Shown piece after piece: positions 2,524 to 57,962 of a DNA stretch of 64,000 bases. The notes below the pieces were generated by a model. That model was not told where the DNA came from. It saw only the letters and a program-made list of their open reading frames with translations, and ran no database searches. The translations under genes were made by a program, and so were the position numbers. This stretch comes from Bacilli bacterium (GTDB taxonomy: Bacteria > Bacillota_I > Bacilli_A > RFN20 > CAG-826), in assembly GCA_024695405.1 (NCBI GenBank), contig JAILIF010000108.1, positions 2,970 through 66,969 on the forward strand. The letters are read 5' to 3'. Every line of letters starts with the position of its first letter. Positions within the stretch are counted from its first letter, which is position 1.

Positions 2524-3714
2524 GTGAAAATTTTGATAAATTATCAACATTATTGGCCTGAAAATTTCCGTATAACAGATATTGCGGAAACACTAGTAAC
2601 ATTAGGAAATGATGTTACTGTTTTATGTGGTCTTCCTAACTATCCGAAAGGATATGTTTTAGACGAATATAAACATGGCAAAAATAGAATCCAAGAGAGA
2701 AATGGGGTTAAGATAATACGCGCAAAAGAAATAGGCAGAAGAAAAGGACCTGTATTCAGGTTATTAAATTATTGGTCATACCCTCATTATGCAAAAAAGC
2801 TTTTAAATAAATTAGATAGAGATTTTGATGTTGTTTATATACAGATGACGTCTCCTATTATGATGGCTAAACCTGGTATTGAATATGGAAAGAGATTTGG
2901 TAAAAAGGTTTTAATGTATGAAATGGATCTTTGGCCAGAATCTTTACTTGCGGGTGGAATTAGTAATAAATCCTTAATATATAAACACTATAAAAAGGTG
3001 TCTACAAAGATATACTCTAGCTGTGATAAGATTTTAACTTCTACAAAAGAGCATATCGATTATATTAAGAAATTATCAGGCTGTAATAATTTAGATATTG
3101 AATGTTTAGAGCAATATGGAGATACAGTTTTTGAAGAAGCAAACTTCAAATCTGTTGATAATGGCGTTATAGATTTAATGTTTGCAGGTAATATAGGTAA
3201 AGCTCAATCATTAGATACTGTTATAAAAGCAGCTTCTATATTAAAAGATGATAATAGATTTAAATTTCATATAGTAGGTAGTGGTAGTGAATTAGATAAT
3301 ATTAAAAAGTTAGCTAATGAATTAAAACTAGATAATGTAATATTCTATGGACAAAAGCCTATAGAAGAGATGCCTAATTTATATAGTTTAGCAGATGCTA
3401 TGTTAGTCACATTAGAAGATAAGTCATACGCTAATATGACTATACCTGGCAAAGTACAATCCTATATGGCTAGTGGTAAAGCTATAATAGGGGCTATTAA
3501 TGGTAGCACTGCTAATTTTATTAAAGATAATAATATAGGATATGTATGTCCTAGCGAAGATAGTGTAGCACTTGCTAATTTAATTAAGACTTTAGATATT
3601 AAAGAGTTATCTGAAATAGGTAAAAGGTCTAAAGAAATATATTTTGAAAAATATTGTAAAGAAAAATTCTTTGCTAAACTAATTAATGATTTAAAAGAGT
3701 TATCTAATAAATAA
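2524..3714 (+). CDS. Glycosyltransferase family 4 (WbuB-like)
   Basis: GTG start 1 nt after the ugd stop. N-terminus MKILINYQHYWPEN; a GT-B fold with an EX7E-like C-terminal region; 396 aa. Confidence 0.75.
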   Translation: MKILINYQHYWPENFRITDIAETLVTLGNDVTVLCGLPNYPKGYVLDEYKHGKNRIQERNGVKIIRAKEIGRRKGPVFRLLNYWSYPHYAKKLLNKLDRDFDVVYIQMTSPIMMAKPGIEYGKRFGKKVLMYEMDLWPESLLAGGISNKSLIYKHYKKVSTKIYSSCDKILTSTKEHIDYIKKLSGCNNLDIECLEQYGDTVFEEANFKSVDNGVIDLMFAGNIGKAQSLDTVIKAASILKDDNRFKFHIVGSGSELDNIKKLANELKLDNVIFYGQKPIEEMPNLYSLADAMLVTLEDKSYANMTIPGKVQSYMASGKAIIGAINGSTANFIKDNNIGYVCPSEDSVALANLIKTLDIKELSEIGKRSKEIYFEKYCKEKFFAKLINDLKELSNK

Positions 3715-3791
3715 CTTTAACTATATATTTTTTAAACTTACTATATATACTTTTAAGTTTCTTCATATAATAAGAATATAGAGGTATTCAT

Positions 3792-4163
3792 ATGAAATTT
3801 TATAGGTGTAAACGTTGTGGCAAGATTGTTGCTTTAGTTAAGGATATTCCTGTACCAACTATTTGTTGTGGTGAAGCTATGGAAGAATTAGTTCCTAATA
3901 CACAAGATGGTGCATTTGAAAAACATATTCCAGTAGTGAGCGTTGATAATAACGTTGTTACAGTAAAAGTTGGTGAAGTAGATCATCCAATGTTAAACGA
4001 ACATTATATTGAATGGATTATGATTCAAACTAATCTAGGGAATCAAAGAAAAGTATTAAAGCCAGGTGATAAATCAATAGCTAGATTTGCTTTGTTAGAA
4101 GGTGAAGAAGTTATTAAAGCTTTAGAATACTGCAATTTACACGGACTATATTCAACTAAATAG
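3792..4163 (+). CDS. dfx: Desulfoferrodoxin (superoxide reductase)
   Basis: N-terminal desulforedoxin Cys4 (CKRCG...CCGEAM), then a neelaredoxin domain with EKHIPV, His ligands and CNLHG; 123 aa. Confidence 0.85.
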   Translation: MKFYRCKRCGKIVALVKDIPVPTICCGEAMEELVPNTQDGAFEKHIPVVSVDNNVVTVKVGEVDHPMLNEHYIEWIMIQTNLGNQRKVLKPGDKSIARFALLEGEEVIKALEYCNLHGLYSTK

Positions 4164-4331
4164 TTAATAGAGAAAGTGTATCAAATAAAAATCTATTAAA
4201 TTATTTTTATATTTAATTTGCTGTTCTTTTACTATATTTATGCAATTACTTGTATGTATTTTTAATTTTACTTGATTTGTTCATATTTGATAGTATACTT
4301 ATGTTCAGTTGAACAAAAAGGAATCAGAAAA

Positions 4332-5375
4332 ATGAACAAAAATTTAAAATTAATCCCACTTGCATTATTAGGGGTATCTGCATTAGCAGGATGTGGAAGC
4401 AGTGATGAGACTATTTATATTTATACTGCTCACGAAGATAATCGTATCGAACAATTTAATAAAGAATTAAAAGCAAAATTTCCAGATTATAAAATTGAAA
4501 TCGTTAGTAAAACAACTGGTGCTTTAATGAGTGAACTCGATGCTAATGGCGTAGAAACTGACTGTGATATTTTCGTTGGTATCGAAATTACTAATGCTGA
4601 AATCTTATTAAAGAAGAACGCTGAATTATTTGCAGATTTATCTGACTATGATACAAGTCATTATGTTGATGAAGTATTAGAATATCAAAAAGATCAAACT
4701 CTTGCTGATGGCACTGTTAGAAAAGGACATAAGAGATATCATATCCAAGATAAAGAAGCAGGATGTATTGTTTATAGTAAATCTTTATGCGGAGAAAACG
4801 TTCCTAAGTCATACGCTGATTTATTAGATCCTAGTTATAAAGGAAAAATTATTATGCCTAATCCTAAATCAAGTGGAACAGGATATTATTTCTATAATGG
4901 TTTAGCTAGTTTAAATGGTAAAGATAAGGCTTTAGAATATTTCACTAGTTTAAACGAAAACGTTAAAGAATGGTCAGCTTCTGGTAGTGGTCCAGTTAAA
5001 GGTGTTGATAAAAAAGATATCGCTGTTGGTTTAGGTATGCACTTCCAAGCAGTTGAATATGCTAATAAGAATGATGATATCGGTATTACATATTTCGAAG
5101 AAGGTTCACCATATACTCTTTATACAATGGGTATGATTAATGGAAAAGAAAAGAAAGAAAAAGTTAAAGAAGTATATGATTATTTCTTCGACTATGTTAA
5201 CTATTTAGATAACTGTAACATTGTTCCTGAAACAATCTATAAACCAGAATTTGCTAAAGAAGTTACAGTCAAAAACTGGAAGTCCCCATCTGATTATGGT
5301 GTTGACTATACTGCAATGAAAAATTTATTAGATCCTGATTTTAAGAATGAATTATTAGACGCATGGAAATTCTAA
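4332..5375 (+). CDS. ABC transporter substrate-binding lipoprotein (Fe3+/2-aminoethylphosphonate/polyamine-type binding-protein family)
   Basis: The ATG at 4332 is preceded by AAAGGAA. Signal peptide plus lipobox LAGCGSS. The binding-protein fold is inferred from its position before the ATPase and permease. The track start at 4272 lacks a Shine-Dalgarno sequence. Confidence 0.75.
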   Translation: MNKNLKLIPLALLGVSALAGCGSSDETIYIYTAHEDNRIEQFNKELKAKFPDYKIEIVSKTTGALMSELDANGVETDCDIFVGIEITNAEILLKKNAELFADLSDYDTSHYVDEVLEYQKDQTLADGTVRKGHKRYHIQDKEAGCIVYSKSLCGENVPKSYADLLDPSYKGKIIMPNPKSSGTGYYFYNGLASLNGKDKALEYFTSLNENVKEWSASGSGPVKGVDKKDIAVGLGMHFQAVEYANKNDDIGITYFEEGSPYTLYTMGMINGKEKKEKVKEVYDYFFDYVNYLDNCNIVPETIYKPEFAKEVTVKNWKSPSDYGVDYTAMKNLLDPDFKNELLDAWKF

Positions 5376-6199
5376 ACGATAAGAAGATAAGTGTTATTAA
5401 CATTAACAAAAGATATAATGGTCAAATTGTTTTAGAAGATATATCTTTTGATATTAAAGAAGGCGAGTTTATTTCTATGCTCGGTGCTTCTGGATGTGGT
5501 AAGACTACTCTTTTAAAGATACTCATTGGTATTGAAACACCAGATAGTGGAACCATCTTAAAAGATGGAGTAGACATCACAAACAATTTACCAAGTAAAA
5601 GAGGAATGGGCTTAGTTTTCCAAAACTACGCTTTATTCCCTAATATGACTGTTTGGAATAACGTAGCGTATGCTTTAAAAGGTAAAAAAGATATGTTACC
5701 TATTTTAGACGCTACAGGAAAACCTGTCGAAGGATCTAAAGAATTAGTTTTAAGAAAACGTTCTAAAGAAGAAATTAAAGCCATAGTAGATGAAGTTATT
5801 GCTATTGTTGGATTATCTGATTACGCTAATAAAAAACCCGGAAAGATGTCTGGCGGTCAACAACAACGTGTTGCTATTGCTCGTACCTTAGCACTTAATC
5901 CAGATATTATTCTTTTCGATGAGCCTATGGCAGCATTAGACGCTGACATTCGTATGTCTTTAAGAAAAGAAATTAAAGCGTTACAAAAGAAATTTAATAA
6001 AACAATGATTTATGTTACTCATGATCAAGAAGAAGCTTTCTCTATGTCAGATAGAATCATTGTTATGAACGATAATCATATCGCTCAATTTGATACACCA
6101 AACAATATTTATAAAAATCCTGCAAATGATTTTGTTAAAAAGTTTGTTGTAAATCATTTAGATGAAAAAGTTTTAGCTATTAAAAATAGCACTAAATAA
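5363..6199 (+). CDS. ABC transporter ATP-binding protein (PotA/FbpC-like importer ATPase)
   Basis: Walker A GASGCGKTT, signature LSGGQQQRVAIAR, Walker B ILFDEP; overlaps the binding-protein gene stop. Confidence 0.85.
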   Translation: MEILNDKKISVININKRYNGQIVLEDISFDIKEGEFISMLGASGCGKTTLLKILIGIETPDSGTILKDGVDITNNLPSKRGMGLVFQNYALFPNMTVWNNVAYALKGKKDMLPILDATGKPVEGSKELVLRKRSKEEIKAIVDEVIAIVGLSDYANKKPGKMSGGQQQRVAIARTLALNPDIILFDEPMAALDADIRMSLRKEIKALQKKFNKTMIYVTHDQEEAFSMSDRIIVMNDNHIAQFDTPNNIYKNPANDFVKKFVVNHLDEKVLAIKNSTK

Positions 6200-6201
6200 A
6201 A

Positions 6202-8751
6202 ATGGAAAAAGCAAAAAGAAATACTAGATTTGACCCTATAATATTTTTACAAATAGGATTAGTTTTAATTCTTTTTGTCTTTTTGCTATTACCTTTATTC
6301 TTCATGCTTTTTAAAGTAACCGGAGATGATTTTTCTTATGTTACTAAAGATGAAATATTTTATAAAGCAATAGGTAATTCTTTACTATATTCATTAATAG
6401 GTACATTAATATCTACTGTATTAGCTACTATATGTGCTTACTTTTTAAGTAGAATTCATTTTAAAGGCAAAAAGTGGTTGGTTATCTTATTAGTTTTACC
6501 TATGTTAATTCCAACTATTTCAATAGGTTTAGGAGTTAGAACATTATTTGGTGTTAACGGATTCCTAGATAAAATGTTTGGATTAAAGTTTGATGGATTA
6601 GGATTCTTCGATCTTATTGTAGGTTCTGTAGTATTTTCTTTTCCAATTGTATTTTTACTTATCTATGATGCTTTATTGTATGAAGATAAAAGTTCTTATG
6701 ATGCCGCTAATACGTTAGGGGTATCTAGATTTAAATCATTTATTGGTATCACTCTTCCTTATCTAAGAAAGACTTTAATATCTGCTTTCTTTGCTAGTTT
6801 TACATTGATATTTGCAGATTATGGTCTTCCAATGGAAGTAGCAGGAAAAGTTAAAACTCTTCCTATGTATTTATATGAGCAAGTAATATCGCAGTTTAAA
6901 TACGGAAGAGGTGCGATTATTTCTTTAGTTTTATTAGTGCCTGCTGTTATTGCATTCGTATTTGATGTTTTATTTAAAGAAAGCAGTGATGGAGTTGCTA
7001 GATCTGAAAAGATTCGTCCTTCTAAGTTATTTAATGGTTTAGGATTAGGTGCGATTATATTTGTTGGAATATTATTAATTATTCCAATGATAGCGTTTAT
7101 TACTATATCATTTGTTAATCGTTTCCCATCGGATATGAGTTTTACATTTGATAACTATATAAATGCTTTCTCTCCTAATTCAACAATATCGATTCTTAAA
7201 TTTTTAAAGAATTCTTTAATTATTTCTTTGTTAGTTGGTTTAGTCGGTACTTCAGTAGCTTATTTATCTGCATATGTATCAACAAGAACTAAGGGAGTTG
7301 TTACTAAACCTCTACATTTGATTTCTATTGCTACTTTAGCGGTTCCTGGACTTGTTTTAGGTATTGGATATGTATTCTTATTCAAATTTACAAAAGGCTG
7401 GTTTGCGGGGACATTAGCAATATTAGTAGTGGTAAATATTATTCACTATTTCTCATCACCATACTTAATGGCGAGAAATGCTTTTGAAAAGATAGATAGA
7501 AATTATGAAACTGTTGCTGAGACACTTGGCATATCAAAGAATTCGTTATTCTTTAAAGTAATGATACCTAACTCAATTGGTACAATACTTCAAATGTTCT
7601 CTTATTTATTTATTAACAGTATGATTACTATCTCTGCTGTGAGTTTCTTATGTAATCAAAATACTACTCCTTTATCAGTAGGTATAACCATTTATGAAAA
7701 TCGAGGAGTTTGGGAAGCAGAATCTGTTATTTCAACTATTATCTTATTAATTAATTTATTAATGAAAATAGGGTTTGATTTTTTAAGTAACTACGTAACT
7801 AAAATAGGAAAAAGAAAGGTGGAAAAGGATATGGAATTAAATCGTTTTCAATTCAATGTACTAGCTTATATCGAGGAACACAATAAGCAAGTATTAACAC
7901 AACGTAGAATCGCAGATGGAGTCACTTTATCATTAGGTACTACAAATAAGATTATTAATCAATTTATAGAAGATGATTTGATTGTAATCCATAATGATAA
8001 AACCATTGAAGTAACCGAGAAAGGATATAAAGCTCTTGAACCATATAAAGTAAGAAAAGCAATTGTTATCGCTGCAGGATTTGGTTCAAGAATGGTACCT
8101 GTAACTTTAGATACACCTAAGCCATTAGTTAAAGTTAATGGAGTACGTATCATTGATACTTTATTAGATGCTTTAATTGCGAAAGGTATTGATAATATCA
8201 CAGTAGTAGTCGGATATAAGAAAGAACAATTCCAACAATTATTAGAAAAATACCCAACATTAAAGTTTATTGAAAACCCTATTTATAATGAATCTAATAA
8301 TATATCTTCTGTATACGCTGCTAAGGATATTATTGATAGATGTTATATATGTGAAGCTGACTTAGTAGTAACTAATCCTAAAGTTATTACTAAGTATCAA
8401 TATTGCTCTAACTATTTAGGAGCGTATGTTTCTGAAACAGATGACTGGTGCTTCTTTAAGAAAGGTAACTACATTAGTAAAGTATCCATTGGTGGAGAAA
8501 ACTGCTGGCATATGATTGGTATTTCTTATTGGGATGAAAAAGATTCCGCTAAGTTAAGAGAAGATATTGTTAAAGTATTTAATTCTAGAGGTGGAAAAGA
8601 AAAGTATTGGGATAACGTTCCTCTTACAGTATGTAAACATGACTTCAAAGTAGAAGTTAGAGACTGTAAGAAAAAAGACGTTACTGAAATCGATAACTTC
8701 TCTGAATTAGTAATTATCGATCCTAGTTACGCAAATTATAAAAAGCAATAA
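6202..8751 (+). CDS. Fusion protein: 12-TM ABC importer permease (two EAA-loop domains), winged-HTH domain, and LicC-family CTP:phospho-X cytidylyltransferase
   Basis: A single 849-codon open frame. Residues 1-543 form two permease halves with EAA-like loops (TLGVSRFKSFIGITLPY and TLGISKNSLFFKVMIPN). Residues from about 544 hold a MarR-like wHTH. The C-terminal roughly 230 aa align with pneumococcal LicC along their length (KAIVIAAGFGSRM..VVVGYKKEQF..YWDN..EID). An in-frame ATG at 7831 carries its own Shine-Dalgarno sequence (AAAGGTGG). Confidence 0.8.
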   Translation: MEKAKRNTRFDPIIFLQIGLVLILFVFLLLPLFFMLFKVTGDDFSYVTKDEIFYKAIGNSLLYSLIGTLISTVLATICAYFLSRIHFKGKKWLVILLVLPMLIPTISIGLGVRTLFGVNGFLDKMFGLKFDGLGFFDLIVGSVVFSFPIVFLLIYDALLYEDKSSYDAANTLGVSRFKSFIGITLPYLRKTLISAFFASFTLIFADYGLPMEVAGKVKTLPMYLYEQVISQFKYGRGAIISLVLLVPAVIAFVFDVLFKESSDGVARSEKIRPSKLFNGLGLGAIIFVGILLIIPMIAFITISFVNRFPSDMSFTFDNYINAFSPNSTISILKFLKNSLIISLLVGLVGTSVAYLSAYVSTRTKGVVTKPLHLISIATLAVPGLVLGIGYVFLFKFTKGWFAGTLAILVVVNIIHYFSSPYLMARNAFEKIDRNYETVAETLGISKNSLFFKVMIPNSIGTILQMFSYLFINSMITISAVSFLCNQNTTPLSVGITIYENRGVWEAESVISTIILLINLLMKIGFDFLSNYVTKIGKRKVEKDMELNRFQFNVLAYIEEHNKQVLTQRRIADGVTLSLGTTNKIINQFIEDDLIVIHNDKTIEVTEKGYKALEPYKVRKAIVIAAGFGSRMVPVTLDTPKPLVKVNGVRIIDTLLDALIAKGIDNITVVVGYKKEQFQQLLEKYPTLKFIENPIYNESNNISSVYAAKDIIDRCYICEADLVVTNPKVITKYQYCSNYLGAYVSETDDWCFFKKGNYISKVSIGGENCWHMIGISYWDEKDSAKLREDIVKVFNSRGGKEKYWDNVPLTVCKHDFKVEVRDCKKKDVTEIDNFSELVIIDPSYANYKKQ

Positions 8752-8762
8752 TGAAACATGTG

Positions 8763-8795
8763 ACCTTCCCGAATAAAGGAAGGTTTTTATTTTAT
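8763..8795 (+). terminator. Rho-independent terminator
   Basis: Hairpin ccttcc-cgaataaa-ggaagg followed by TTTTTATTTT. Confidence 0.6.
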
Positions 8796-8880
8796 GAGCG
8801 TTTTATTTATTTTTATTTTTCATTTGGTGATAATATCTAATTACCTACTAAAATGGTAGGCAATAAAGGAGAAGACAAAT

Positions 8881-9807
8881 ATGTTATTCAAAAACGGATA
8901 TGATTTAGTAGGGGGAACTCCATTACTAGAACTCACACACATCGAAAAAGAATTAAAGTTAAAAGCAAAATTATTTGCTAAAGTTGAATACTTCAATCCA
9001 GCAGGTTCGGTTAAAGATAGAATAGTTTTATCTATGATTAATGACGCTGAAGCAAAAGGTGTACTTAAAGAAGGCACTGTTATTATTGAACCAACTAGTG
9101 GTAATACTGGTATTGGTTTAGCTTCTATTGCAACAATGAAAGGCTATAGAGTAGTTCTTACTATGCCAGAAAGTATGTCTATTGAAAGACGTAAATTATT
9201 AAAAGCATATGGTGCTGAATTAGTCTTAACAGAAGCTAGTAAAGGTATGAAAGGTGCTATTGCTAAAGCAGAAGAACTTAATAAAGAAATTCCTAATTCA
9301 ATTATCTTAGGCCAATTTGTAAACCCAGCTAATCCAAAGGTGCACTTCGAAACAACTGGACCAGAAATTTATAAAGATTTAGATGGTAAAGTTGATGCAT
9401 TCGTTGCTGGTGTAGGAACTGGTGGAACAATTACTGGCGTTGGCAAATATATCAAATCACAAAAAGCAGATGTTAAGGTTGTCGCTGTTGAACCAGCAGC
9501 TTCACCTGTATTAAGTGAAGGTAAAGCTGGACCTCACATGATTCAAGGTATTGGTGCTGGTTTCGTTCCGGATACATTAGATACTAGTGTATATGATGAA
9601 GTTATCAAAATTGAAAATGATGATGCTTTTACATATGGTAGATTTATTGGCAAAAAAGAAGGCATCTTAGTTGGTATTTCTTCTGGTGCTGCTTTATATG
9701 CTGCAATCCAAGTTGCTAGTAGGGATGAATTTAAAGATAAAAACGTTGTAGTTTTATTGCCAGATAGTGGCGATAGATACTTATCAACAAAATTATTCGA
9801 GGAATAA
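8881..9807 (+). CDS. cysK: Cysteine synthase A (O-acetylserine sulfhydrylase)
   Basis: PLP-binding region SVKDR and the TSGNTGIGLA motif; 308 aa; Shine-Dalgarno AAGGAG upstream. Confidence 0.9.
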   Translation: MLFKNGYDLVGGTPLLELTHIEKELKLKAKLFAKVEYFNPAGSVKDRIVLSMINDAEAKGVLKEGTVIIEPTSGNTGIGLASIATMKGYRVVLTMPESMSIERRKLLKAYGAELVLTEASKGMKGAIAKAEELNKEIPNSIILGQFVNPANPKVHFETTGPEIYKDLDGKVDAFVAGVGTGGTITGVGKYIKSQKADVKVVAVEPAASPVLSEGKAGPHMIQGIGAGFVPDTLDTSVYDEVIKIENDDAFTYGRFIGKKEGILVGISSGAALYAAIQVASRDEFKDKNVVVLLPDSGDRYLSTKLFEE

Positions 9808-9809
9808 AA

Positions 9810-10244
9810 ATGAAGATTTCTACAAGAGGTAGATACGCTTTAAGGGTAATGATTGATTTGGTGGACCATTCTAATGGAGAATATGTTCCACTTAAAGAAA
9901 TAGCTGAACGTCAGAATATTTCTTTAAAGTATGTTGAATCAATCATGACTAATTTATCTAAGCATAACTTAGTTATAGGTAAGCATGGTGCACAGGGTGG
10001 CTATAAGTTAGCTAAGGATTCAAAAAGTTATACTGCTCTTGAGATACTTGAAATTACTGAAGGTAGCCTTGCTCCAGTCGGATGTCTTGACTGTAAGACT
10101 AACAAATGTGAAATGCACACATATTGTAAAACTCTTCCTATGTGGGAAGGTTTACAGAAGTTAGTTCAAGATTATTTTGCCTCAATCTCTCTCAAAGGTT
10201 TAAGTGAGACATCCGAAAGATATATATTTGGAGCAGGTATCTAA
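9810..10244 (+). CDS. Rrf2-family transcriptional regulator (CymR/IscR-like) with a C-terminal Cys cluster
   Basis: N-terminal MKISTRGRYALRVMIDL wHTH. The C-terminal CLDCKTNKCEMH resembles the IscR Cys3-His Fe-S ligand arrangement. It lies between cysK and cysE. Confidence 0.8.
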   Translation: MKISTRGRYALRVMIDLVDHSNGEYVPLKEIAERQNISLKYVESIMTNLSKHNLVIGKHGAQGGYKLAKDSKSYTALEILEITEGSLAPVGCLDCKTNKCEMHTYCKTLPMWEGLQKLVQDYFASISLKGLSETSERYIFGAGI

Positions 10245-10249
10245 GATAC

Positions 10250-10285
10250 GGTCCGGTCTATCCCCGGACCTTTTATTATTTTTAG
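10250..10285 (+). terminator. Rho-independent terminator
   Basis: Hairpin ggtccgg-tctatcc-ccggacc followed by a T-rich tract. Confidence 0.65.
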
Positions 10286-10352
10286 CGTAATTCTCGCAAA
10301 TTTAAAAAAATAATATTATATTTATTATTACCTGAATTCGGAGGATAGAATC

Positions 10353-11048
10353 ATGATAGATAAAAGTAAAATTATTAATTTAGTTACTGAAACTATCTGT
10401 TGTCTTTTATCTGATTGTAATAATATTAACGACATTAAAAAATCCTTCGTAGAAGTTATTGATGATAAAGAAGAAAACGCTGATAAATTCATTGGTGCTT
10501 TTGTAGATATCAAAAGAGATTTATTAGCGGATTTAGATTTCTTTATGGAAAGCGATCCTGCTATTGATAGTAGAGAAGAAGTTATACTTACTTATCCAGG
10601 TTTTAAAGCAATTTGCTTTTATCGTATAGCTCACGTTTTACGTAACATGGGTTACTTATTGGTTTCTAGAATTATTACCGAAGAAGCACATTCAAAGACT
10701 GGAATTGATATTCACCCAGGAAGTAAAATTGCTGCTCCATTCTTTATTGACCATGGAACTGGTATTGTTATTGGAGAAACCGCAATTGTTGGTTCTTATG
10801 TAAAACTATATCAATGTGTTACATTAGGTGCTTTATCATTATCAAAGGGTGCTAAGATGAAAAACATTAAACGTCACCCAACGATTGGCAATCACGTAAC
10901 GATATATGCTTGTGCATCTATCTTAGGTGATATTACTGTTGGAGACAATGTCACAATTGGCTCTAACGTATTCTTAATTGAATCTGTTCCACCTCGTATG
11001 AGGGTTACAATTGGTAAACCTGAATTGGTAATTAAATCAAAAGAATAG
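10353..11048 (+). CDS. cysE: Serine O-acetyltransferase
   Basis: SAT N-terminal domain plus left-handed beta-helix hexapeptide repeats (GETAIVGSYV, IGNHVTIY, VGDNVTIGSNV); 231 aa. Confidence 0.85.
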   Translation: MIDKSKIINLVTETICCLLSDCNNINDIKKSFVEVIDDKEENADKFIGAFVDIKRDLLADLDFFMESDPAIDSREEVILTYPGFKAICFYRIAHVLRNMGYLLVSRIITEEAHSKTGIDIHPGSKIAAPFFIDHGTGIVIGETAIVGSYVKLYQCVTLGALSLSKGAKMKNIKRHPTIGNHVTIYACASILGDITVGDNVTIGSNVFLIESVPPRMRVTIGKPELVIKSKE

Positions 11049-11063
11049 AAGAAAAGGAAGCTC

Positions 11064-12131
11064 TTAGTTGGCTTCCTTTTTAACTGTTCTTTTAGGTTTA
11101 GATTCCTTATTTTCTTTAGCAGGTTCTTTTGATGGTTCTTTCACTTCTTTTGGCTTTTTAGGAGCTTTAGGAGTTTTAGCATTTGCTGCTGCAAATAAGT
11201 TCATTTGTTCTACTTGCTTTTCTGTAGGCTTGCCAGCAGTTGTTTTCTTACTATAGTCTGATGAGAAAGTATAAGACTCTAATTTCTTTGCTTGTTCTAC
11301 ACTTCTGTTTTCTCTTTCTTCTCTCTTATTAATATCAGAGATATAAATAACGATAGATGATGTTAATAATGAAACAATAATAATTCCATAGAATCCAATG
11401 ATAACTGAAAGGATTCTACCTGTAGTGGTTGTAACAGTAAGATCGCCAAATCCAGTAGTGGTAATTAAAGCGAAACAATACCACCATGCGTCTCCTGCAT
11501 CTTTAATTGAATCCTCGACGTGAGGAAGAATGAATGAAGTAAGTAATAGGATGATAAATAAACCAAAGAAGATATCTAAACCATGAACTCTATTAAGTGC
11601 TTTGCCTAAATCTGTAATAGAGATAACTTTCTTAACAAACATATTAGAAACTAAGTTAGCTAAACCTTTATATAAAACTAAGCATCCTAATATAACGTTT
11701 GTAGCAATATCTGATTCTTGTCCGCTGAACATTAAGAAGATAAATAGGACACAGATAATGTTTTCCATTCCGAAGAATGATTCTGTTCTATTAGATTTTC
11801 TATAAATAATTGCTTTTGCGATATTTGCAAGAACATCCGCAACACAAGAAGCGCCTACAACATATGCCATCTTGCTAGGGTCTGCGTTGAAGATAATCAT
11901 TAAGATTATGATGATGCCGTGTAATGAACCGTGAATTATCGTGTAGAGTAAGGATGATTCATATGCGAAATACTTAATAACAACTAATCCGACTTTAATT
12001 AAGAAGAATACAATCATGACCCACATGATGTAGTCTTGTAAGATTTCAATTTTCAATGTGACGATGAAACCTACGATAACTAGAAGTGATGCTAATACAA
12101 TCTCTAAAATGCCATGTAAATTTTTATTCAT
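11064..12131 (-). CDS. Potassium channel protein (2TM/pore type) with a Lys/Pro-rich cytoplasmic tail
   Basis: Selectivity-filter signature TTTGFGD; several TM helices; about 90 C-terminal residues of KPK/PKxP-rich low-complexity sequence; Shine-Dalgarno AGGAGAA. Confidence 0.8.
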   Translation of the reverse strand: MNKNLHGILEIVLASLLVIVGFIVTLKIEILQDYIMWVMIVFFLIKVGLVVIKYFAYESSLLYTIIHGSLHGIIIILMIIFNADPSKMAYVVGASCVADVLANIAKAIIYRKSNRTESFFGMENIICVLFIFLMFSGQESDIATNVILGCLVLYKGLANLVSNMFVKKVISITDLGKALNRVHGLDIFFGLFIILLLTSFILPHVEDSIKDAGDAWWYCFALITTTGFGDLTVTTTTGRILSVIIGFYGIIIVSLLTSSIVIYISDINKREERENRSVEQAKKLESYTFSSDYSKKTTAGKPTEKQVEQMNLFAAANAKTPKAPKKPKEVKEPSKEPAKENKESKPKRTVKKEAN

Positions 12132-12247
12132 GATGATTCTCCTTGAAGTGGGAAAGTTTTTGAGAAATTGACTATTTTTGTCAACAACTCCCTTATTTTA
12201 ATTGATTTTTGTATAACAACAATTATTTTTTTATAAATTTTAGTGAA

Positions 12248-12283
12248 TTTTTCAAAAATCGACCCATTTAAATAAGTAAGGAG
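12248..12283 (+). promoter_or_regulatory. Repeat family copy A (TTTTTCAAAAA-TCGACCCATTTAAATAAGTAAGGAG): putative -10 plus Shine-Dalgarno module
   Basis: Near-identical to copy B at 12577-12613; related copies at 35604, 43806 and 63902. Confidence 0.45.
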
Positions 12284-12576
12284 TATTTAAAATTTTTTAA
12301 TATACTAACCTATTAAGATTTAAAAATGGTAAAAAAGAGAAGAAAGTCTTCCTACGCGAGAAGATATAGTAAACCTTTATTAAGAGGGAAATTTTATAAA
12401 GTAAGCGATAAAAATGGAGGGCATTATTCGAGGTTATATAAAAAGAATACAAAAGAAAAAAATGAGCTACACGCGCCTTTAACAGCCCAATGTGCTTACT
12501 CACAAAATTATTAAAACAAAATCGTTTGTTACATTCAAGAAAGTATATTTAATATTTTTTTAAAATTTTTGCACAA

Positions 12577-12613: not shown

Positions 12614-12890
12614 TTTGTAACCTTATGAACCTTGAGAAACTTCTCTCAGTCCCCGCAATCTCTTTACGAGAAAGGATGTTAAATTTTAGTGGTAGTAATA
12701 CTGTTAAAGTTTGTACTCATCGTAGTTTTGTTGTTAATGATACTGGGTAACTGGTAACTAAAAAAGCCTGGGAGGCATGTCTCCTAGGCCCTAAAGACAA
12801 CTTTATTATACATGCGTGTTTGGCGGAAGGAAAGCACAACCTTCAAGTTGAAGGGGACTGCCTTCGTATTGATAAATAGTGAGGAAAATT

Positions 12891-13358
12891 ATGAAATCAT
12901 ATCAGCAACTTTATAGATACGCTAAACAGCTAGCGTTGAAGTGGAAACATACTGCTTCGAAAATTAAAGAAAAATTATTATTAAAAGGAGCATCTTCTAT
13001 TGAGATAGACAAAATAATTTTTTCTTTAATTAATGATAAAGTCCTAGACGATAACAAATGTTTCGAGCTAGATGTATTTGCTATGGAAGAAAAAAGATAT
13101 GGGTATAAAAGAATAAAAGAATATCTATGTAAGAAGGGATATGGTAGAGAACTCTTAGATAAGTATATTTTTAATAAAGATATAGAAAAAGATAATTGTT
13201 ATTATCACTTTTTTAAAGGAAGCAAAAAATATAAAAACTACAAATATAGTGATGTAGAAAGAGAAAAATTAATTAATTATCTAAAAAGAAATGGGTTTAA
13301 TGATACAATAATAACCGAAGTTATTAAAGTAGGTATTAAATATGAAGATGTTATGTGA
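12891..13358 (+). CDS. recX: Regulatory protein RecX
   Basis: RecX-type helical repeats; ATG at 12891 with GAGGA 7 nt upstream (track start 12879 is a GTG); 155 aa. Confidence 0.65.
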   Translation: MKSYQQLYRYAKQLALKWKHTASKIKEKLLLKGASSIEIDKIIFSLINDKVLDDNKCFELDVFAMEEKRYGYKRIKEYLCKKGYGRELLDKYIFNKDIEKDNCYYHFFKGSKKYKNYKYSDVEREKLINYLKRNGFNDTIITEVIKVGIKYEDVM

Positions 13359-14268
13359 ATACAAAGATGGTGAACACATCACTGGCCAGTTTCTCGTTTC
13401 TAATGTTTCTAAAGGAACAAACGCAAATGGTGGACAATATCTTAATGTAGAACTTAGAGATGCTTCTGCTAGTATGAACGCTAAAAAGTGGGAAGTGGCT
13501 AGTAAAGATGAAGAAATAGTTGTCTCTGGTAATGTAATTTATATTGATGGTGAAGTTTTAAAATATAAAGAATCTCTTCAAATTAAATTATTAAACGTAA
13601 GAGCGGTTGATTTAGATGAAATTGATCCTACTAAATTTTTAAAACAACCCCCAATACCAAAAGAAGAACTCATAAAGAAATTTAATAAATATGTAGATGA
13701 AGTAGAAAACGAAGACTGTAAAAAGATATTGAATTATTTTATTAATAAATATAATAATCAAATTTACGATTATCCGGCCGCTAGCAGCATTCATCATGAA
13801 TATATGAGCGGATTACTCGTTCACTGCACTACAATGGCTGAAATCGCCGAAAAACTATGTGAAATCTATCCTGTTAATAAAGACTTGGTTATAACTTCGG
13901 TATTATTACACGATATTGGCAAGATTACTGAATTAGAAGGACCGATAGTGTATAAATATTCACTTAAAGGAAAACTTATTGGCCATATTTCAATTATGGC
14001 AGCAGAAATTGATGAAGCCGCCAAAGAATTAGGACTTACTAGTGAAACTCCATTATTGTTGCAACATGCAATTTTATCTCATCATGGACAACTAGAATAT
14101 GGTTCTCCAGTTCTACCTGAAACTGCAGAAGCTCTTATGCTTTCTTTAGTAGATAACTTAGATTCTAAAATGGTTATTACATTAAAAGCATTAGAAGAGA
14201 CTAAAGATGGGGAATTCACAAATAAAGTGTATCCTCTAGATGGAAGAACATTTTATAAGCACAAATAA
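13342..14268 (+). CDS. yhaM: 3'-5' exoribonuclease YhaM (OB-fold plus HD domain)
   Basis: N-terminal OB-fold, then an HD domain (HHEYMSGLLVHC...LLHDIGK); 308 aa. Confidence 0.85.
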   Translation: MKMLCEYKDGEHITGQFLVSNVSKGTNANGGQYLNVELRDASASMNAKKWEVASKDEEIVVSGNVIYIDGEVLKYKESLQIKLLNVRAVDLDEIDPTKFLKQPPIPKEELIKKFNKYVDEVENEDCKKILNYFINKYNNQIYDYPAASSIHHEYMSGLLVHCTTMAEIAEKLCEIYPVNKDLVITSVLLHDIGKITELEGPIVYKYSLKGKLIGHISIMAAEIDEAAKELGLTSETPLLLQHAILSHHGQLEYGSPVLPETAEALMLSLVDNLDSKMVITLKALEETKDGEFTNKVYPLDGRTFYKHK

Positions 14269-14795: not shown

Positions 14796-16523
14796 TTAAT
14801 CATCTTCGAACAAATCTGGGAAATTACTCTTGAAGTAATCATAGACAGATTGATCGTGGAATGAAATGTCACATTTTTCTAACCAATGCTCTTTAGAAAG
14901 AGTGATATTTGTGTCGCTAGTTGAGAGTAAAGATGCGACATCAATTCTTAAAGCATAGTTATTCTTTGCTTCATTACTATTCATGTAGTTAGCAGAAACT
15001 GCTTCTTCGATGTTAATGATGTAGTAAGTGTGAGCGCTTGTATCGTGGAAGATAACTGTTTCGTAATCTTCTTGGTTAGCTTTTAAGTTACTGTTTCTTA
15101 AGAAATAGTTATTGCCGTTTTTAGCAATGTATTTATTTCCATCGGCAACAGCGACCTTACCAGCAGTGTCTCTAGTGATTTCTGCAGCAGTACCGCCGTT
15201 TTTACCAGTAGCAACAGAGAGGTTAAATAAACGGCTTCTAATTGAATCTGGTAATGAAGAAACTTCGCTGCTTGATTTGATAAACCAACCATCTGTAACG
15301 TGGTCTTCTAAAGCAACTTTTTCTGATTCAAGTTGGAAACCAATGTCAGCAATATATTTATTGCCACCAGTGTAATCTCTTGAAGCATTTGATTTTGCTG
15401 GGTTTGGATCAAGTTTAGCATAGTCTTCAACTAAGTCACCGTAAGTTGAACCTTTAACGTAGTCGTAAGCAGTACCATCGATAGTTTTTGTTTCGATAAC
15501 GCCTTCATTGACTAAGTTAATATTCATATCTGCTAACATTTTGTTTTCAGGACTATTTGGATCGTTGTCTTTCATGAATTCACCATTCCAAATAGAAGAT
15601 AATGTGTTGAAAGATGTGAATGTATCAGTATTCTTATCTGTGAATAAGTAATCTTTAACGAAAGTTTTTACTAATGTATCAGCATATAATGATTCATCTA
15701 AATCATCATATTTAATAGAAACATAGTTAACTTTACGTGCAGATGAAGTACCTAATGTCTTTTCTTGGTTATCAAAGATGTATTGTTGTACTAAAGCATC
15801 TCTATAGATGTCTGGCATAATAACATCATCAATGTATGTACCATAGAAATTTTCGTGTAAAATACCATCTTTGAAAACATTTTCACCTTTAACATTTGGT
15901 GTGACGATTAAATCTTTAGTTAATGTTGCTTTATCAGCATCGTTCATTGTGTATGGGTTAGCAACTTTGTTTTTTCCTTCGCCATCGAATAAGCTAACTA
16001 ATAATTTGTATTCGTCAAATTTGTTATTTTCTGTAGCACTGCTTAATTTTGAGAACATCTTTTTAGCAGCAGCATCTTTCATAGCGTTGTATCTTGCTGT
16101 GATTAATGCTTTTTGAGCAGCAGCGTCACCAACATCATATGCTGGGTGTTCTTTAACGAAGTCAGCTAATTTAGCGTCATCAGCAACAACATCAGCTAAA
16201 GTGATGATTTTAGTTGCATCAATTGCTTCACCACCTTTAGTAACTTTCTTTGCGTATGTGCCTGCGATTGTAGCGTCATATGCGCCAACTACATTTATAG
16301 CGTATGTGTATAAGACGTTGTCTAATGCTTGTGCAGCGAGGTTACCATGGTAATCGTCGTTTAATGATTTATAGTTGTTATCAAAAACATCTTTAGTGAA
16401 TGCTAATAAAGTAGCACCATCTTTATTTTTAGAAGGTCTTGCTTCAATATCATCACAAGCAGCTAATCCACATGCAAGTAAGCAAGAGACTGCTAAAAAT
16501 TTACCTAATTTCTTATTTGCCAT
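14796..16523 (-). CDS. Surface lipoprotein, function unknown
   Basis: Signal peptide plus lipobox LAAC; 575 aa; rich in D/K/N/T/A; second gene of a two-gene operon. Confidence 0.7.
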   Translation of the reverse strand: MANKKLGKFLAVSCLLACGLAACDDIEARPSKNKDGATLLAFTKDVFDNNYKSLNDDYHGNLAAQALDNVLYTYAINVVGAYDATIAGTYAKKVTKGGEAIDATKIITLADVVADDAKLADFVKEHPAYDVGDAAAQKALITARYNAMKDAAAKKMFSKLSSATENNKFDEYKLLVSLFDGEGKNKVANPYTMNDADKATLTKDLIVTPNVKGENVFKDGILHENFYGTYIDDVIMPDIYRDALVQQYIFDNQEKTLGTSSARKVNYVSIKYDDLDESLYADTLVKTFVKDYLFTDKNTDTFTSFNTLSSIWNGEFMKDNDPNSPENKMLADMNINLVNEGVIETKTIDGTAYDYVKGSTYGDLVEDYAKLDPNPAKSNASRDYTGGNKYIADIGFQLESEKVALEDHVTDGWFIKSSSEVSSLPDSIRSRLFNLSVATGKNGGTAAEITRDTAGKVAVADGNKYIAKNGNNYFLRNSNLKANQEDYETVIFHDTSAHTYYIINIEEAVSANYMNSNEAKNNYALRIDVASLLSTSDTNITLSKEHWLEKCDISFHDQSVYDYFKSNFPDLFEDD

Positions 16524-54243: not shown

Positions 54244-55563
54244 ATGAAACAAAAATTAACAATTGATGAAAAGTTAGCAAAAAGAAAATATAAGACACCT
54301 TCAAACTTAGTGTGGTTTGGTTATAAGATTTTATCTAATTTACCATTCTTTGCGCCTAAGTATCACCCAACATACAAAATTATTGATGATCCAAGAAAAG
54401 AAAAAGGACCATGTTTTATTGTTTGGAACCATCTTTCAAGAAGAGATTATTTATTCTTAAAGAAGATTATTGCACCTAAGAAGTTTAATATGGTTGCTGG
54501 TTATAGCGAATTTTTTAGAAAGAAATTCTTTAACTTATTTAAGTTCTGCAAAATCATTCCAAAGAAGAATTTTACTCAAGACCCAGTAGGCATTAGAGCT
54601 ATTAATAAAGTAATTAAGAGTGGTGGATGTGTAGCATTTTCTCCGGAGGGCATGTCTTCAATATATGGACATAACCAACCTGTAGTTCCAGGAACTGGTA
54701 GATTTTTACAGTTTTATGGGGTACCTGTTTATTTTATGAAACTAGAAGGTGCTTACTTAACTTCACACAAGACAGATATTAAAGATAGAGTGGGTAAAGT
54801 TAACGTAACAATTCAAAAGTTATTTACTCCAGAAGATTTAAAGAAAATGACACCTGATGAAATTCAAGATGTCGTTAACTATACATTTAAACACGATGAT
54901 TACGAATGGAACAAAACTGCTAGAGTTAAATATAAAATCAAAAATAGAGCAGCTTACAATTTAGAAACTATTTGTTATAAGTGCCCAAAGTGCGGCGCTG
55001 AATTAAAAATGGTTGGTTGGGGCAATAAGTTATACTGTGCTGAATGTGGTAATGGTGTAGAAATTGATGAATATTATGATTTCCATTTATTGCATGAAGG
55101 CGACAAAGCACCAGTTTCTCCATCTGCGTGGGTAGATTGGGAACGTACCCAAGTTATTAAAGAAATAAGAGCGGATAAAAATTATTCTTTCTCTTGTGAA
55201 GTAACTATAGGTGAACTTCCTAAATATAAACCAATAAAAGACAATAATGCTTTATCTATTCCTTGTGGTAAAGGAATCGTTACTATTGATCATCAAGGTA
55301 TGCATTTTAATGGTGAAAGACATGGAAAACCATGGCAGTGGAGTCTTGGATATGACATTATTTATTCTCTAGTTATTGAAAATGATACAACGGCAACTTG
55401 CATGTATGTAAATGGAGAATGTATTGAGATAATTCCAAAGCAAAAATGTATTGGTAAGATGTTGCTTTTAGTTGAAGAAATGCATAGATTACATGTGAAC
55501 CTATGGAAGAATTTCCCTTGGTGTGATTACATGTATGAAGGAACTGAACTAGAAAAGAAATAA
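54244..55563 (+). CDS. Lysophospholipid (PlsC-family) acyltransferase with a C-terminal zinc-ribbon-containing domain
   Basis: HX4D motif VWNHLSRRD plus a PEGM-like SPEGMSS block; the C-terminal half has CYKCPKCG...CAECG; 439 aa. Confidence 0.65.
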   Translation: MKQKLTIDEKLAKRKYKTPSNLVWFGYKILSNLPFFAPKYHPTYKIIDDPRKEKGPCFIVWNHLSRRDYLFLKKIIAPKKFNMVAGYSEFFRKKFFNLFKFCKIIPKKNFTQDPVGIRAINKVIKSGGCVAFSPEGMSSIYGHNQPVVPGTGRFLQFYGVPVYFMKLEGAYLTSHKTDIKDRVGKVNVTIQKLFTPEDLKKMTPDEIQDVVNYTFKHDDYEWNKTARVKYKIKNRAAYNLETICYKCPKCGAELKMVGWGNKLYCAECGNGVEIDEYYDFHLLHEGDKAPVSPSAWVDWERTQVIKEIRADKNYSFSCEVTIGELPKYKPIKDNNALSIPCGKGIVTIDHQGMHFNGERHGKPWQWSLGYDIIYSLVIENDTTATCMYVNGECIEIIPKQKCIGKMLLLVEEMHRLHVNLWKNFPWCDYMYEGTELEKK

Positions 55564-55669
55564 GGAAGGATTAATAGTCCTTCTTTTTAACAATATGCAA
55601 AATTTGCATTTTTTATTGTGAGAAATATTTTAGATTAATATAATAATATTATTGGCGAGGGAATTTATA

Positions 55670-57959: not shown

Positions 57960-57962
57960 CAA

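Follow-up and report, generated by a model that had tools for sequence, protein, structure and literature searches.

A three-gene cassette in which an ABC importer permease is continuous with a winged-helix and LicC-type cytidylyltransferase module in genomes from rumen and gut

Layout of the locus

The DNA analysed is a stretch of 64,000 nucleotides (nt) from a Bacilli bacterium (GenBank assembly GCA_024695405.1, contig JAILIF010000108.1, positions 2,970 to 66,969 of the forward strand; G+C about 31%), called the window below; unless stated otherwise, positions are those of the window. The subject of this report is a cassette of three tightly packed genes at 4332-8751 on the forward strand. 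They encode a lipoprotein solute-binding protein, an ATP-binding cassette (ABC) ATPase and a single 849-codon open reading frame (ORF), in which an importer permease is continued in frame by a winged helix-turn-helix (wHTH) domain and a cytidylyltransferase domain of the LicC type (Table 1). ORF calls and domain searches found the three genes just as a first-pass annotation, made from the letters of the sequence, had described them. That annotation had also proposed that the cassette imports and activates head groups of surface glycans; the proposal is supported by the fold, the motifs and the transporter family, and is extended here by a regulatory role and a probable second isoform.

A promoter-like site precedes the cassette and a terminator-like hairpin, found by scanning, begins 11 nt beyond the stop codon of the fusion ORF; with both of its own, the cassette forms a self-contained unit. 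A longer version of the binding protein, starting at a TTG at 4272, was rejected because this codon falls inside the promoter-like -35 element.

Table 1. Features of the cassette and its control region (window positions; aa, amino acids; SD, Shine-Dalgarno sequence)
Feature	Position	Strand	Basis or remark
Promoter-like site TTGATT-16 nt-TATACT	4272-4299	+	Consensus scan match only; 33 nt 5' of binding-protein ATG
Operator-like array TGTTCA-N18-TGTTCAgtTGAACA-N17-TGAACA	4278-4338	.	Sequence reading
Lipoprotein solute-binding protein, 347 aa	4332-5375	+	ATG at 4332; signal peptide and lipobox LAGC
ABC ATPase, 278 aa	5363-6199	+	13-nt overlap with binding-protein gene
Fusion ORF, 849 codons	6202-8751	+	Start 2 nt past ATPase stop
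Permease part, residues 1-543	6202-7830	+	12 transmembrane segments, two EAA coupling loops
Internal SD-like AAAGGTGG with ATG (codon 544)	7815-7822 (SD-like), 7831-7833 (ATG)	+	First codon of wHTH
wHTH, residues 544-617	7831-8052	+	HTH_24, MarR_2, HTH_45 (Pfam)
LicC-type cytidylyltransferase, residues 618-849 and stop	8053-8751	+	1jyk sequence match, fold match
Terminator-like hairpin	8762-8785, T-run to 8795	+	8-bp stem, 4 G-C pairs, tail TTTATTTTAT

Architecture of the fusion protein

Residues 17-533 of the fusion ORF match the NCBIfam family PhnU2 (TIGR03262) end to end (341 bits, model positions 7-537 of 546), and two BPD_transp_1 stretches were detected with Pfam. A hydropathy scan gave 12 transmembrane segments with EAA-type loops at residues 167-186 and about 436-456, and these positions place the C-terminus of the fusion protein in the cytoplasm. 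An AlphaFold2 (AF2) model of the whole chain was built from 40 homologues (predicted local distance difference test, pLDDT, 83.8; predicted template-modelling score, pTM, 0.61). In this model the last transmembrane helix runs on to residue 542, with a short low-confidence linker at 538-543, and is followed by a winged helix and then by an alpha/beta nucleotidyltransferase. The membrane half was compared with the Protein Data Bank (PDB) using Foldseek, and superposes on Thermus thermophilus FbpB (9j4r_A) with a TM-score of 0.84. Hydropathy, family match and fold thus agree with the two-domain permease (two sets of six segments, two EAA loops) first proposed for residues 1-543. With a lipoprotein, an ABC ATPase and a BPD_transp_1 permease carrying EAA loops, the cassette has the make-up of a type I binding-protein-dependent ABC importer.

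The MarR-like winged helix that had been placed between permease and enzyme was recovered as a match to HTH_24 at residues 546-594 (score 23.6 against a cutoff of 21.9), with MarR_2 below its cutoff. In the AF2 model the domain consists of helices 548-559, 567-574 and 578-590, a beta wing at 594-604 and a helix at 606-615. A profile search of the PDB returned the DNA-binding domains of ScaR (6e-6), MntR, IdeR, DeoR and MepR and, more weakly, the enzyme-regulators RbkR (3cta) and BirA. Residues Q567, R568, T575 and S577 of the HTH are nearly invariant among homologues.

From residue 619 onward the chain matches NTP_transferase and NTP_transf_3 (Pfam). The C-terminal 230 residues align with the whole length of Streptococcus pneumoniae LicC (1jyk) at an E-value of 2e-26; the next matches were PntC-AEPT (1e-10), then MurU, mannose-1-phosphate and RmlA enzymes (1e-7 or weaker). 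The fold gave the same order: LicC 1jyk at an E-value of 5e-14 (TM-score 0.89, root-mean-square deviation 2.2 Å), PntC-AEPT at 6e-9, and IPCT, RmlA, MurU and GlmU at 1e-7 or weaker, with IspD absent from the top 50 Foldseek matches. The end-to-end likeness to LicC noted in the first-pass annotation therefore holds by sequence and by predicted fold, and neither leads to assignment as IspD or as a sugar-1-phosphate enzyme.

Nucleotidyltransferases of this group carry the signature GXG(T/S)R-X4-8-PK (PMC6697681). It is present here as G626-F-G-S-R630-MVPVTLDT-P639-K640, and G626, G628, R630, P639 and K640 are invariant in the 40 homologues. So are D720, E829 and D831, the equivalents of the LicC metal ligands D107, E216 and D218 (LicC numbering was anchored on R129 and E216 of 1jyk). 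The invariance of signature and metal ligands argues for an active enzyme.

The residues around the substrate pocket are less uniform. Glu718, also invariant in the 40 homologues, stands at the position of Glu104 of Treponema denticola PntC (Tde-PntC) and Asp105 of LicC. The LicC residues Trp136, Tyr190 and Asp192 are kept as W749, Y802 and Asp804, the last at the position of Tde-PntC Glu196. Ser698 takes the place of LicC Tyr85, which we presume to be part of the aromatic box of the choline pocket. The bulky Glu104 and Glu196 of Tde-PntC narrow its pocket (PMC6697681). The use of these residues to discriminate 2-aminoethylphosphonate (AEP) from phosphocholine was abandoned, because the residues point both ways and the same sites also vary among kinase-fused LicC relatives.

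Recurrence of the fusion

A protein-cluster search covering 5.8 billion proteins returned more than 120 clusters with the same ORF (53-98% identity, 817-880 aa when complete), all carrying both the permease and the nucleotidyltransferase Pfam domains. The protein of the window had no exact entry in the contig index, and close homologues were used for comparison. A scan of species-representative genomes gave 142 relatives, of which 80 loci were kept, plus one further locus, L001. The ORF was at least 780 aa long in 51 of the 80, and in L001; several others are cut by contig ends. All carriers are metagenome-assembled genomes (MAGs), mostly from rumen and other gut, and carry the labels Bacilli, Erysipelotrichaceae, Anaeroplasmataceae, Oscillospiraceae, Lachnospiraceae, Christensenellaceae or Spirochaetales; a Bacilli MAG from yak omasum comes closest (85% identity).

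Nothing interrupts the reading frame at the junction, either in the window or in the independent assemblies; among the latter the linkers vary in length and sequence, and none holds a stop. The fusion is real and is conserved under selection. The checks that the first-pass annotation proposed for a missed stop at the junction and for counterparts in related genomes thus came out in its favour, as did its other computational tests. In public databases the ORF goes by generic names, either "ABC transporter permease subunit" or "iron(III) transport system permease", and a full-text literature search found no description of a permease-wHTH-LicC fusion, in keeping with the earlier remark that such coupling of uptake and activation on one polypeptide had not been described. 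The cassette is a new combination of known parts: a cluster-D ABC importer, a LicC/PntC enzyme and a wHTH.

The transporter and its probable ligand class

The binding protein matches SBP_bac_6, SBP_bac_8 and SBP_bac_11 (Pfam) and falls in cluster D with PhnS2, AfuA and FbpA. Among the PhnS, FbpA and PotD families between which the first annotation had left the choice, it sits in the PhnS/AfuA/FbpA group, with PhnS2 (TIGR03261) as best NCBIfam family at 137 bits against a cutoff of 392.75. The ATPase matches ABC_tran (Pfam) and PhnT2 (TIGR03265; 323 bits, cutoff 457.7), and the cutoff of PhnU2, best family of the permease, is 593.25; ThiP, the next family of full 12-segment length, reached 75 bits. 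All three parts thus match PhnS2/T2/U2 best, yet below every equivalog cutoff. The Fe3+/AEP-type character first ascribed to the transporter stands as far as best families and the FbpB-like permease fold go; the scores stop short of membership, and the transporter is best described from its sequence as a distinct subfamily related to PhnS2/T2/U2.

The match of the ATPase to PhnT2 ends near model position 241 of 353, and the C-terminal regulatory domain typical of its PotA, FbpC and PhnT relatives is missing; the short form is the rule in the family (median 260 aa). The ATPase aligns with its best NCBIfam models in two parts, an indication of an additional segment around residues 100-130.

In an AF2 model of the binding protein (pLDDT 88), the nearest solved structures were AfuA and the glucose-6-phosphate-binding VcA0625, both for sugar phosphates, and P5PA, which binds pyridoxal 5'-phosphate (PLP). 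Assignment of a ligand from the fold was abandoned because AfuA, VcA0625, P5PA, the ferric-binding proteins and PhnS (4r6y) all fell in one narrow band of Foldseek scores. In an alignment with AfuA, the phosphate loop SSGT (residues 180-183, T183 corresponding to AfuA T150) is conserved, and the AfuA sugar ligands D206 and E229 are replaced by F238 and T262. Since the phosphate loop is kept and the sugar ligands are replaced, the ligand is likely an organophosphate or organophosphonate with a non-sugar moiety. No gene of phosphonate or AEP catabolism (phnW, phnX, phnA) recurs as a neighbour in the clustered ORFs of the 80 loci and the window, nor is any AEP catabolic gene found among the window ORFs of at least 240 aa, as judged by Pfam or by synteny to Pfam-annotated genes of L001.

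A conserved operator-like array in front of the cassette

At the centre of the operator-like array, between the -10 element and the ribosome-binding site, lies the perfect palindrome TGTTCAgtTGAACA (4302-4315), the only GTTCA-N2-4-TGAAC of the window. The array extends beyond the coordinates given in the first-pass annotation, which does not mention it. One outer half-site (4278-4283) abuts the -35 element and the other (4333-4338) overlaps the start codon of the binding-protein gene. In an alignment of seven related loci (L001-L007), GTTCA..TGAAC and ATGAACAA are invariant, the layout of the array and the position of the promoter-like site relative to it are kept, and the intergenic flanks diverge.

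The pattern GTTCA-N2-4-TGAAC was counted in 1.32 Mb (window and loci): 31 exact copies were found against 3.8 expected. Of these, 23 stand directly 5' of the binding-protein gene of a cassette, at loci that differ in taxonomic label and have unrelated genes on either side; across taxa the palindrome on the cassette promoter has the form GTTCA-N2-3-TGAAC. The density of half-sites is 7.0 per kb 5' of the binding-protein gene and 0.69 per kb elsewhere, a 10-fold difference. The exact palindrome is present at 22 of the 28 loci whose fusion ORF retains the methionine at codon 544 and at 1 of the 17 that lack it. The two sets also differ in the wHTH: palindrome-bearing loci encode a recognition helix of the SLGTxNK type, and Met-lacking loci one of the TLSNxxK/R type, the latter with only scattered half-sites, still enriched 7-fold.

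No other DNA-binding domain is encoded in the conserved cassette. A cognate operator thus appears to lie on the cassette's own promoter, and comparative genomics indicates that the wHTH very probably binds it. The half-site enrichment 5' of standalone wHTH-LicC genes is weak (1.4 per kb), and the operator claim is therefore limited to the transporter operons. Identity with a LexA (Cheo box) or PhoP operator was considered and rejected because the orientation and arrangement of the half-sites differ. Riboswitches and other RNA elements were rejected for the leader, since an Rfam scan of positions 3500-9500 gave no match at E ≤ 0.1.

A predicted internal start at the first codon of the wHTH

The SD-like sequence before codon 544 has a predicted anti-SD pairing energy of -10.2 kcal/mol, the best among the 26 in-frame start-type codons, and stronger than the predicted pairing at the binding-protein, cysK and cysE genes. 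No SD precedes the annotated start of the ATPase or that of the fusion ORF, and both look translationally coupled. In the 28 fusion loci that retain the methionine, the median is -9.9 kcal/mol, within the top 0.8% of codon positions per ORF, and SD cores such as AAGGAGG are kept though the encoded linker residues vary. In the other subfamily codon 544 is ATC and the SD has decayed (median -6.6). About 9 of the 17 Met-lacking loci, against 1 of the 28 Met-retaining ones, have an upstream gene for a free wHTH-LicC paralog.

These patterns suggest that a soluble 306-aa wHTH-LicC protein is probably also made from the internal start. Such a copy would resolve a mismatch, since each transporter has a single-chain permease and the palindrome calls for a dimer.

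Neighbouring genes and relatives of the wHTH-LicC module

ORFs were called and clustered in the window and the 81 loci. The fusion has two constant companions and no others, the binding protein (52 loci) and the ATPase (54 loci), which defines a portable three-gene cassette. Among additional neighbours LicD (PF04991) is the most frequent (16 genes, 14 loci) and often directly adjacent, and this fits the idea of a surface head group. Flippases, glycosyltransferase family 4 (GT4) enzymes, sugar-modifying enzymes and initiating transferases are also common near the cassette. At L001 a full polysaccharide cluster lies upstream; in the window a GT4 gene, a uridine diphosphate (UDP)-sugar dehydrogenase gene and another GT4 gene do, and the cassette stands at the end of a glycan gene cluster. 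A desulfoferrodoxin gene (3792-4163) is located between these glycan genes and the cassette.

No LicD or choline-kinase homologue was found anywhere in the 64 kb, and a profile hidden Markov model made from wHTH-LicC-choline-kinase fusions matched only the LicC part of the fusion ORF there; the reported lack of an adjacent LicA-like kinase accordingly extends to the whole window. Phosphoenolpyruvate (PEP) mutase (Ppm, pepM) was likewise not found among the Pfam-scanned ORFs of the window, in which the other ORFs of at least 240 aa are covered by synteny with L001, and no Ppm-like neighbour recurs in the clustered related loci. While licD, licA and pepM are all absent from the window, licD nonetheless stands out among the neighbours in related loci.

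The nearest relatives of the module outside the fusions were found in a HMMER search with the 306-aa tail (226 matches below 1e-30): standalone wHTH-LicC proteins of about 300 aa, wHTH-LicC-choline kinase proteins of about 590 aa, and wHTH-LicC-kinase-LicC triple fusions. Its closest non-transporter relatives are fused to, or adjoin, choline kinases. The presence of the wHTH in standalone and kinase-fused relatives marks it, by sequence comparison, as an ancestral part of this LicC subfamily and no passive spacer; the position held in relatives by a kinase appears to be taken by the transporter in the cassette. Three proteins of about 850-900 aa (P0123, P0154 and P0243) were considered as further permease fusions and rejected: they are triple fusions of the wHTH-LicC-choline kinase-LicC type. 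Together with P0122 they span 850-906 aa and carry two cytidylyltransferase domains per chain; in P0123 the C-terminal LicC is closer to the domain of the window (51% identity) than the N-terminal one is (31%).

In a sister group (L062, L064, L065 and L067), permease and wHTH-LicC are adjacent or overlapping separate genes, and the functional link between transporter and LicC is therefore independent of the fusion. At these loci (around locus positions 9900-12500), the gene for the wHTH-LicC (296 aa) comes directly after that for the permease (about 540 aa), which it overlaps or abuts; in a rough neighbour-joining tree this wHTH-LicC groups with the clade of free paralogs, not with the fused domains.

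Some loci have a richer layout. At L008, L010, L020, L021 and L066 (about locus positions 3000-8100, 5' of the binding-protein gene), the order is flippase, LicD, a gene resembling ornithine cyclodeaminase or octopine dehydrogenase, a second LicC-type gene and the cassette, sometimes with an APC-family permease before the cassette. Two cytidylyltransferases and an opine-type dehydrogenase at one locus suggest a modified primary-amine head group. A different recurrent set stands in place of LicD at L023, L033, L044, L059, L062, L064, L065 and L074: a protein of about 700 aa with an N-terminal YidC domain and a C-terminal half that has no family assignment, plus one to three proteins of about 590-660 aa, one of which matches Sulfatase (PF00884) and would fit an LtaS/EptA-like architecture. 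This set may be an extracytoplasmic route of head-group transfer.

Proposed mechanism and cargo

On balance, we consider it somewhat probable, judging from sequence and predicted structure, that the cassette imports a head group, cytidylylates it and regulates itself. Outside the cell, the lipoprotein would capture a small head group, an organophosphonate or organophosphate, which the ATPase and the 12-segment permease would import. About 16 residues below the last transmembrane helix, on the cytoplasmic face, the LicC-type domain would condense the substrate with cytidine triphosphate (CTP) to a form linked to cytidine monophosphate (CMP) or diphosphate (CDP), with no kinase involved. Cytidylylation would trap the substrate and feed a LicD-type or other phosphotransferase that decorates surface glycans. 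The wHTH would recognise the TGTTCA/TGAACA sites over its own promoter and exert feedback control in the manner of BirA, NadR and RbkR. The DNA-binding species would probably be a dimer that includes the soluble 306-aa protein started at codon 544; in the subfamily devoid of the internal start, a separate paralogous gene would supply the soluble protein.

In the absence of LicA, the cargo must arrive already carrying phosphorus. AEP is slightly favoured as the cargo, tentatively, because it needs no kinase, the transporter is of the AEP type, Glu718 is PntC-like and the carriers live in rumen and gut; the opine-dehydrogenase-type genes beside LicD and LicC in related loci also imply a primary-amine head group. 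AEP was first isolated from rumen ciliates, and ciliate AEP is available in rumen and gut. One preprint consulted for a link to symbionts of rumen ciliates held nothing relevant.

In its fullest form, which we regard as possible and rather doubtful, the proposal becomes an ABC-driven "group translocation": the head group would be cytidylylated at the exit of the translocation pathway, and the soluble wHTH-LicC, alone or paired with the tethered copy, would bind TGTTCA-N2-TGAACA and shut the operon when activated product accumulates. One gene would thus yield both the membrane protein and the soluble form, and the portable cassette would unite a transporter, an enzyme and a transcription factor. 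Uncultured rumen and gut bacteria that lack PEP mutase would in this way decorate their surfaces with salvaged AEP.

Several findings weigh against the import, activation and self-regulation proposal or against its AEP form. Specificity residues are mixed (Glu718 is PntC-like; Asp804, Trp749 and Tyr802 are LicC-like; Ser698 replaces Tyr85), pneumococcal LicC is a much nearer match to the domain than T. denticola PntC, and the substrate is not assignable from NCBIfam, where all scores are far under the equivalog cutoffs. LicD is present in just 8 of the 29 fusion loci with at least 18 kb of sequence, and no LicD or recognisable head-group transferase is within reach in the window, L001 or L002. 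On the regulatory side, the operator could belong to another, unsampled regulator; a single membrane-tethered wHTH fits a palindrome awkwardly; and the purine-rich Lys/Glu/Gly linker inflates SD-like scores, with some Met-lacking loci also scoring strongly. With a pTM of 0.61 the model does not dock the enzyme confidently under the permease, the tree of LicC domains was made by neighbour joining and is unsupported, and all the fusion-bearing genomes retrieved are MAGs.

Alternative explanations

The most serious competitor concerns the cargo. Phosphocholine from host or dietary phosphatidylcholine could be imported in phosphorylated form, and the CDP-choline made from it would serve in LicD-type decoration or in the synthesis of phosphatidylcholine. 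We rank it second to AEP and rather unlikely, with any other phospho-base third. The margins of the LicC matches over Tde-PntC (2e-26 against 1e-10 by sequence, 5e-14 against 6e-9 by fold), the retention of LicC Trp136, Tyr190 and Asp192 as W749, Y802 and Asp804, the choline kinases fused to or adjoining the closest relatives of the module, and the LicD neighbours in related loci would all suit phosphocholine. Likeness to LicC does not discriminate, however, because the AEP-specific enzyme Ari-PntC is itself LicC-like and keeps the aromatic residues (Rice et al., PMC6697681). The pocket also departs from LicC at two points, having Glu718 for Asp105, as in PntC, and Ser698 for Tyr85; the best families of the transporter are of the AEP type; and loci that also have a kinase-fused LicC keep the transporter-linked relative as a separate paralog, which hints at a different substrate. 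Extracellular phosphocholine is, moreover, a poor candidate for a stable pool, and we know of no ABC binding protein specific for it. A different cargo would be handled if the cassette were an ordinary nutrient importer, for a phosphonate as phosphorus source, iron or a vitamin, with the wHTH-LicC part acting mainly as a cytoplasmic sensor and regulator by trans-inhibition or transcriptional control; the LicC fold would then serve to bind a ligand and would not be a biosynthetic enzyme that supplies glycans. The ATPase has no regulatory domain, and regulation could have moved to the tail of the permease; the operator evidence for a regulatory function is clear, and the window holds no transferase. 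A pure sensor would not be expected to keep the catalytic and metal residues of LicC invariant across 40 homologues, however, and the recurrent neighbours across the 80 loci are LicD and glycan clusters, not phosphonate catabolic genes. Iron is further disfavoured by H237 and F238, which occupy the AfuA H205/D206 positions where ferric-binding proteins have their iron-ligand tyrosine pair. We regard the sensor explanation as improbable.

Two further alternatives bear on the regulatory features and on the ORF itself. The wHTH could be a relic or a structural or dimerisation domain, the palindrome the site of an unrelated regulator, and the SD and ATG a functionless leftover of the fusion. The fusion evidently arose from adjacent genes, for which an unfused arrangement exists; linker composition favours SD-like purine runs; and standalone wHTH-LicC genes show little half-site enrichment upstream. 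Set against this, the operator travels with the cassette across taxa that have different flanking genes, its presence tracks the type of the recognition helix, the HTH residues Q567, R568, T575 and S577 hardly vary, and the SD core persists despite varying linker residues and decays where the ATG is lost, so that we judge this explanation unlikely, if less so than the sensor. An SD and an ATG at the junction are also what two separate genes would have, a permease gene and a licC gene merged by a missed stop or frameshift in assembly or sequencing. This artefact is extremely improbable and effectively refuted: more than 120 independent clusters and 51 species-level genomes from different studies share the uninterrupted ORF, and their stop-free linkers differ in length and sequence.

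Comparison with known systems

The Lic pathway of S. pneumoniae and Haemophilus influenzae consists of the choline permease LicB, the kinase LicA, the CTP:phosphocholine cytidylyltransferase LicC and the phosphotransferase LicD. The cassette shares with it the LicC fold, signature motif and metal ligands, LicD as commonest extra neighbour, and the same logic, from import through a CDP- or CMP-activated head group to a surface glycan. It differs in using a binding-protein-dependent ABC importer in place of a LicB-type secondary carrier and in lacking LicA, and its LicC is covalently joined to the permease, carries an N-terminal wHTH and has Ser and Glu for Tyr85 and Asp105.

The resemblance to PntC (PDB 6PD1/6PD2; PMC6697681) that had been suggested on first inspection is borne out by the second-best match in sequence and structure, by Glu718 as the counterpart of Tde-PntC Glu104 and by the kinase-free reaction; PntC clusters also hold LicD-like transferases. 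It is weakened by the clearly closer match to LicC, the overall similarity to PntC being much lower, and by the lack of Ppm in the window. PntC genes are fused to or adjoin Ppm, and AEP is made in the cell, whereas the cassette has an importer and would obtain its AEP by salvage. A further difference is the Asp found at the position of Tde-PntC Glu196.

With the cluster-D importers (PhnS2T2U2/PhnSTUV, AfuABC, P5PA, FbpABC), the cassette shares the three-part layout and a single 12-segment permease, with AfuA and P5PA the fold and phosphate loop of the binding protein, and with FbpB (FbpBC structure 9j4r) the permease fold. AfuABC imports sugar phosphates (PMC4546632) and P5PA is for PLP (PMC8427247). 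In contrast to these systems, the ATPase of the cassette has no C-terminal regulatory domain, its permease has a 306-residue cytoplasmic wHTH-enzyme extension, and its binding protein does not keep the sugar-binding residues of AfuA.

A wHTH joined to a nucleotide-using pathway enzyme is also seen in BirA, in NadR (with PnuC) and in archaeal RbkR (wHTH and riboflavin kinase, 3cta/5trd). NadR traps the substrate that its transporter delivers, a mechanistic analogy to the activation proposed here. The enzymes are from unrelated families and none is fused to its transporter, and DNA binding by the cassette module is deduced from operator genomics.

Phosphocholine, AEP and similar head groups on bacterial surfaces affect how the host, the immune system and phages recognise the cell. 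Routes to them known so far need either the LicA kinase or de novo C-P synthesis (Ppm); the cassette suggests a third, ABC salvage wired to the activating enzyme, which would explain head-group decoration in small-genome gut and rumen bacteria that have neither Ppm nor LicA. If the proposal is true, the cassette would be a rare case in which an ABC importer is linked covalently to the enzyme for the first metabolic step of its cargo, and would add a member to the small class of enzyme-repressors (BirA, NadR, RbkR). Its parts are compact (three genes, a 14-bp operator and an internal start), and the variants of operator and recognition helix are natural specificity mutants. The generic annotations now given to many of these ORFs could be corrected.

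Other features of the window

The rest of the window is mostly housekeeping (suf genes, mnmG/rsmG, parA, der, recA, rny, miaB, fhs, argS and pyruvate:ferredoxin oxidoreductase). Directly 3' of the cassette, at 8881-11048, are cysK, a gene for an Rrf2-family regulator and cysE (serine acetyltransferase-like); L001 and L002 have this cluster in synteny, and it seems to have no connection with the cassette. In these closest relatives the cassette is flanked by genes for a 325-aa membrane protein and a 296-aa lipoprotein (L001 positions 7048-8025 and 12716-13606), neither of which has a Pfam match or is LicD-like. Two large overlapping ORFs (575 and 624 aa) on the reverse strand at 14796-18387 have no Pfam match and are kept in L001 and L002.

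Far downstream, a 439-aa ORF without a family match (54244-55563) lies just 5' of three genes at 55652-59087 that resemble the set of CapE/FnlA, CapF/FnlB and UDP-GlcNAc 2-epimerase (nucleotide sugars of the UDP-L-FucNAc type). The first gene of this set, called from a TTG start, has an N-terminal HTH_3 match.

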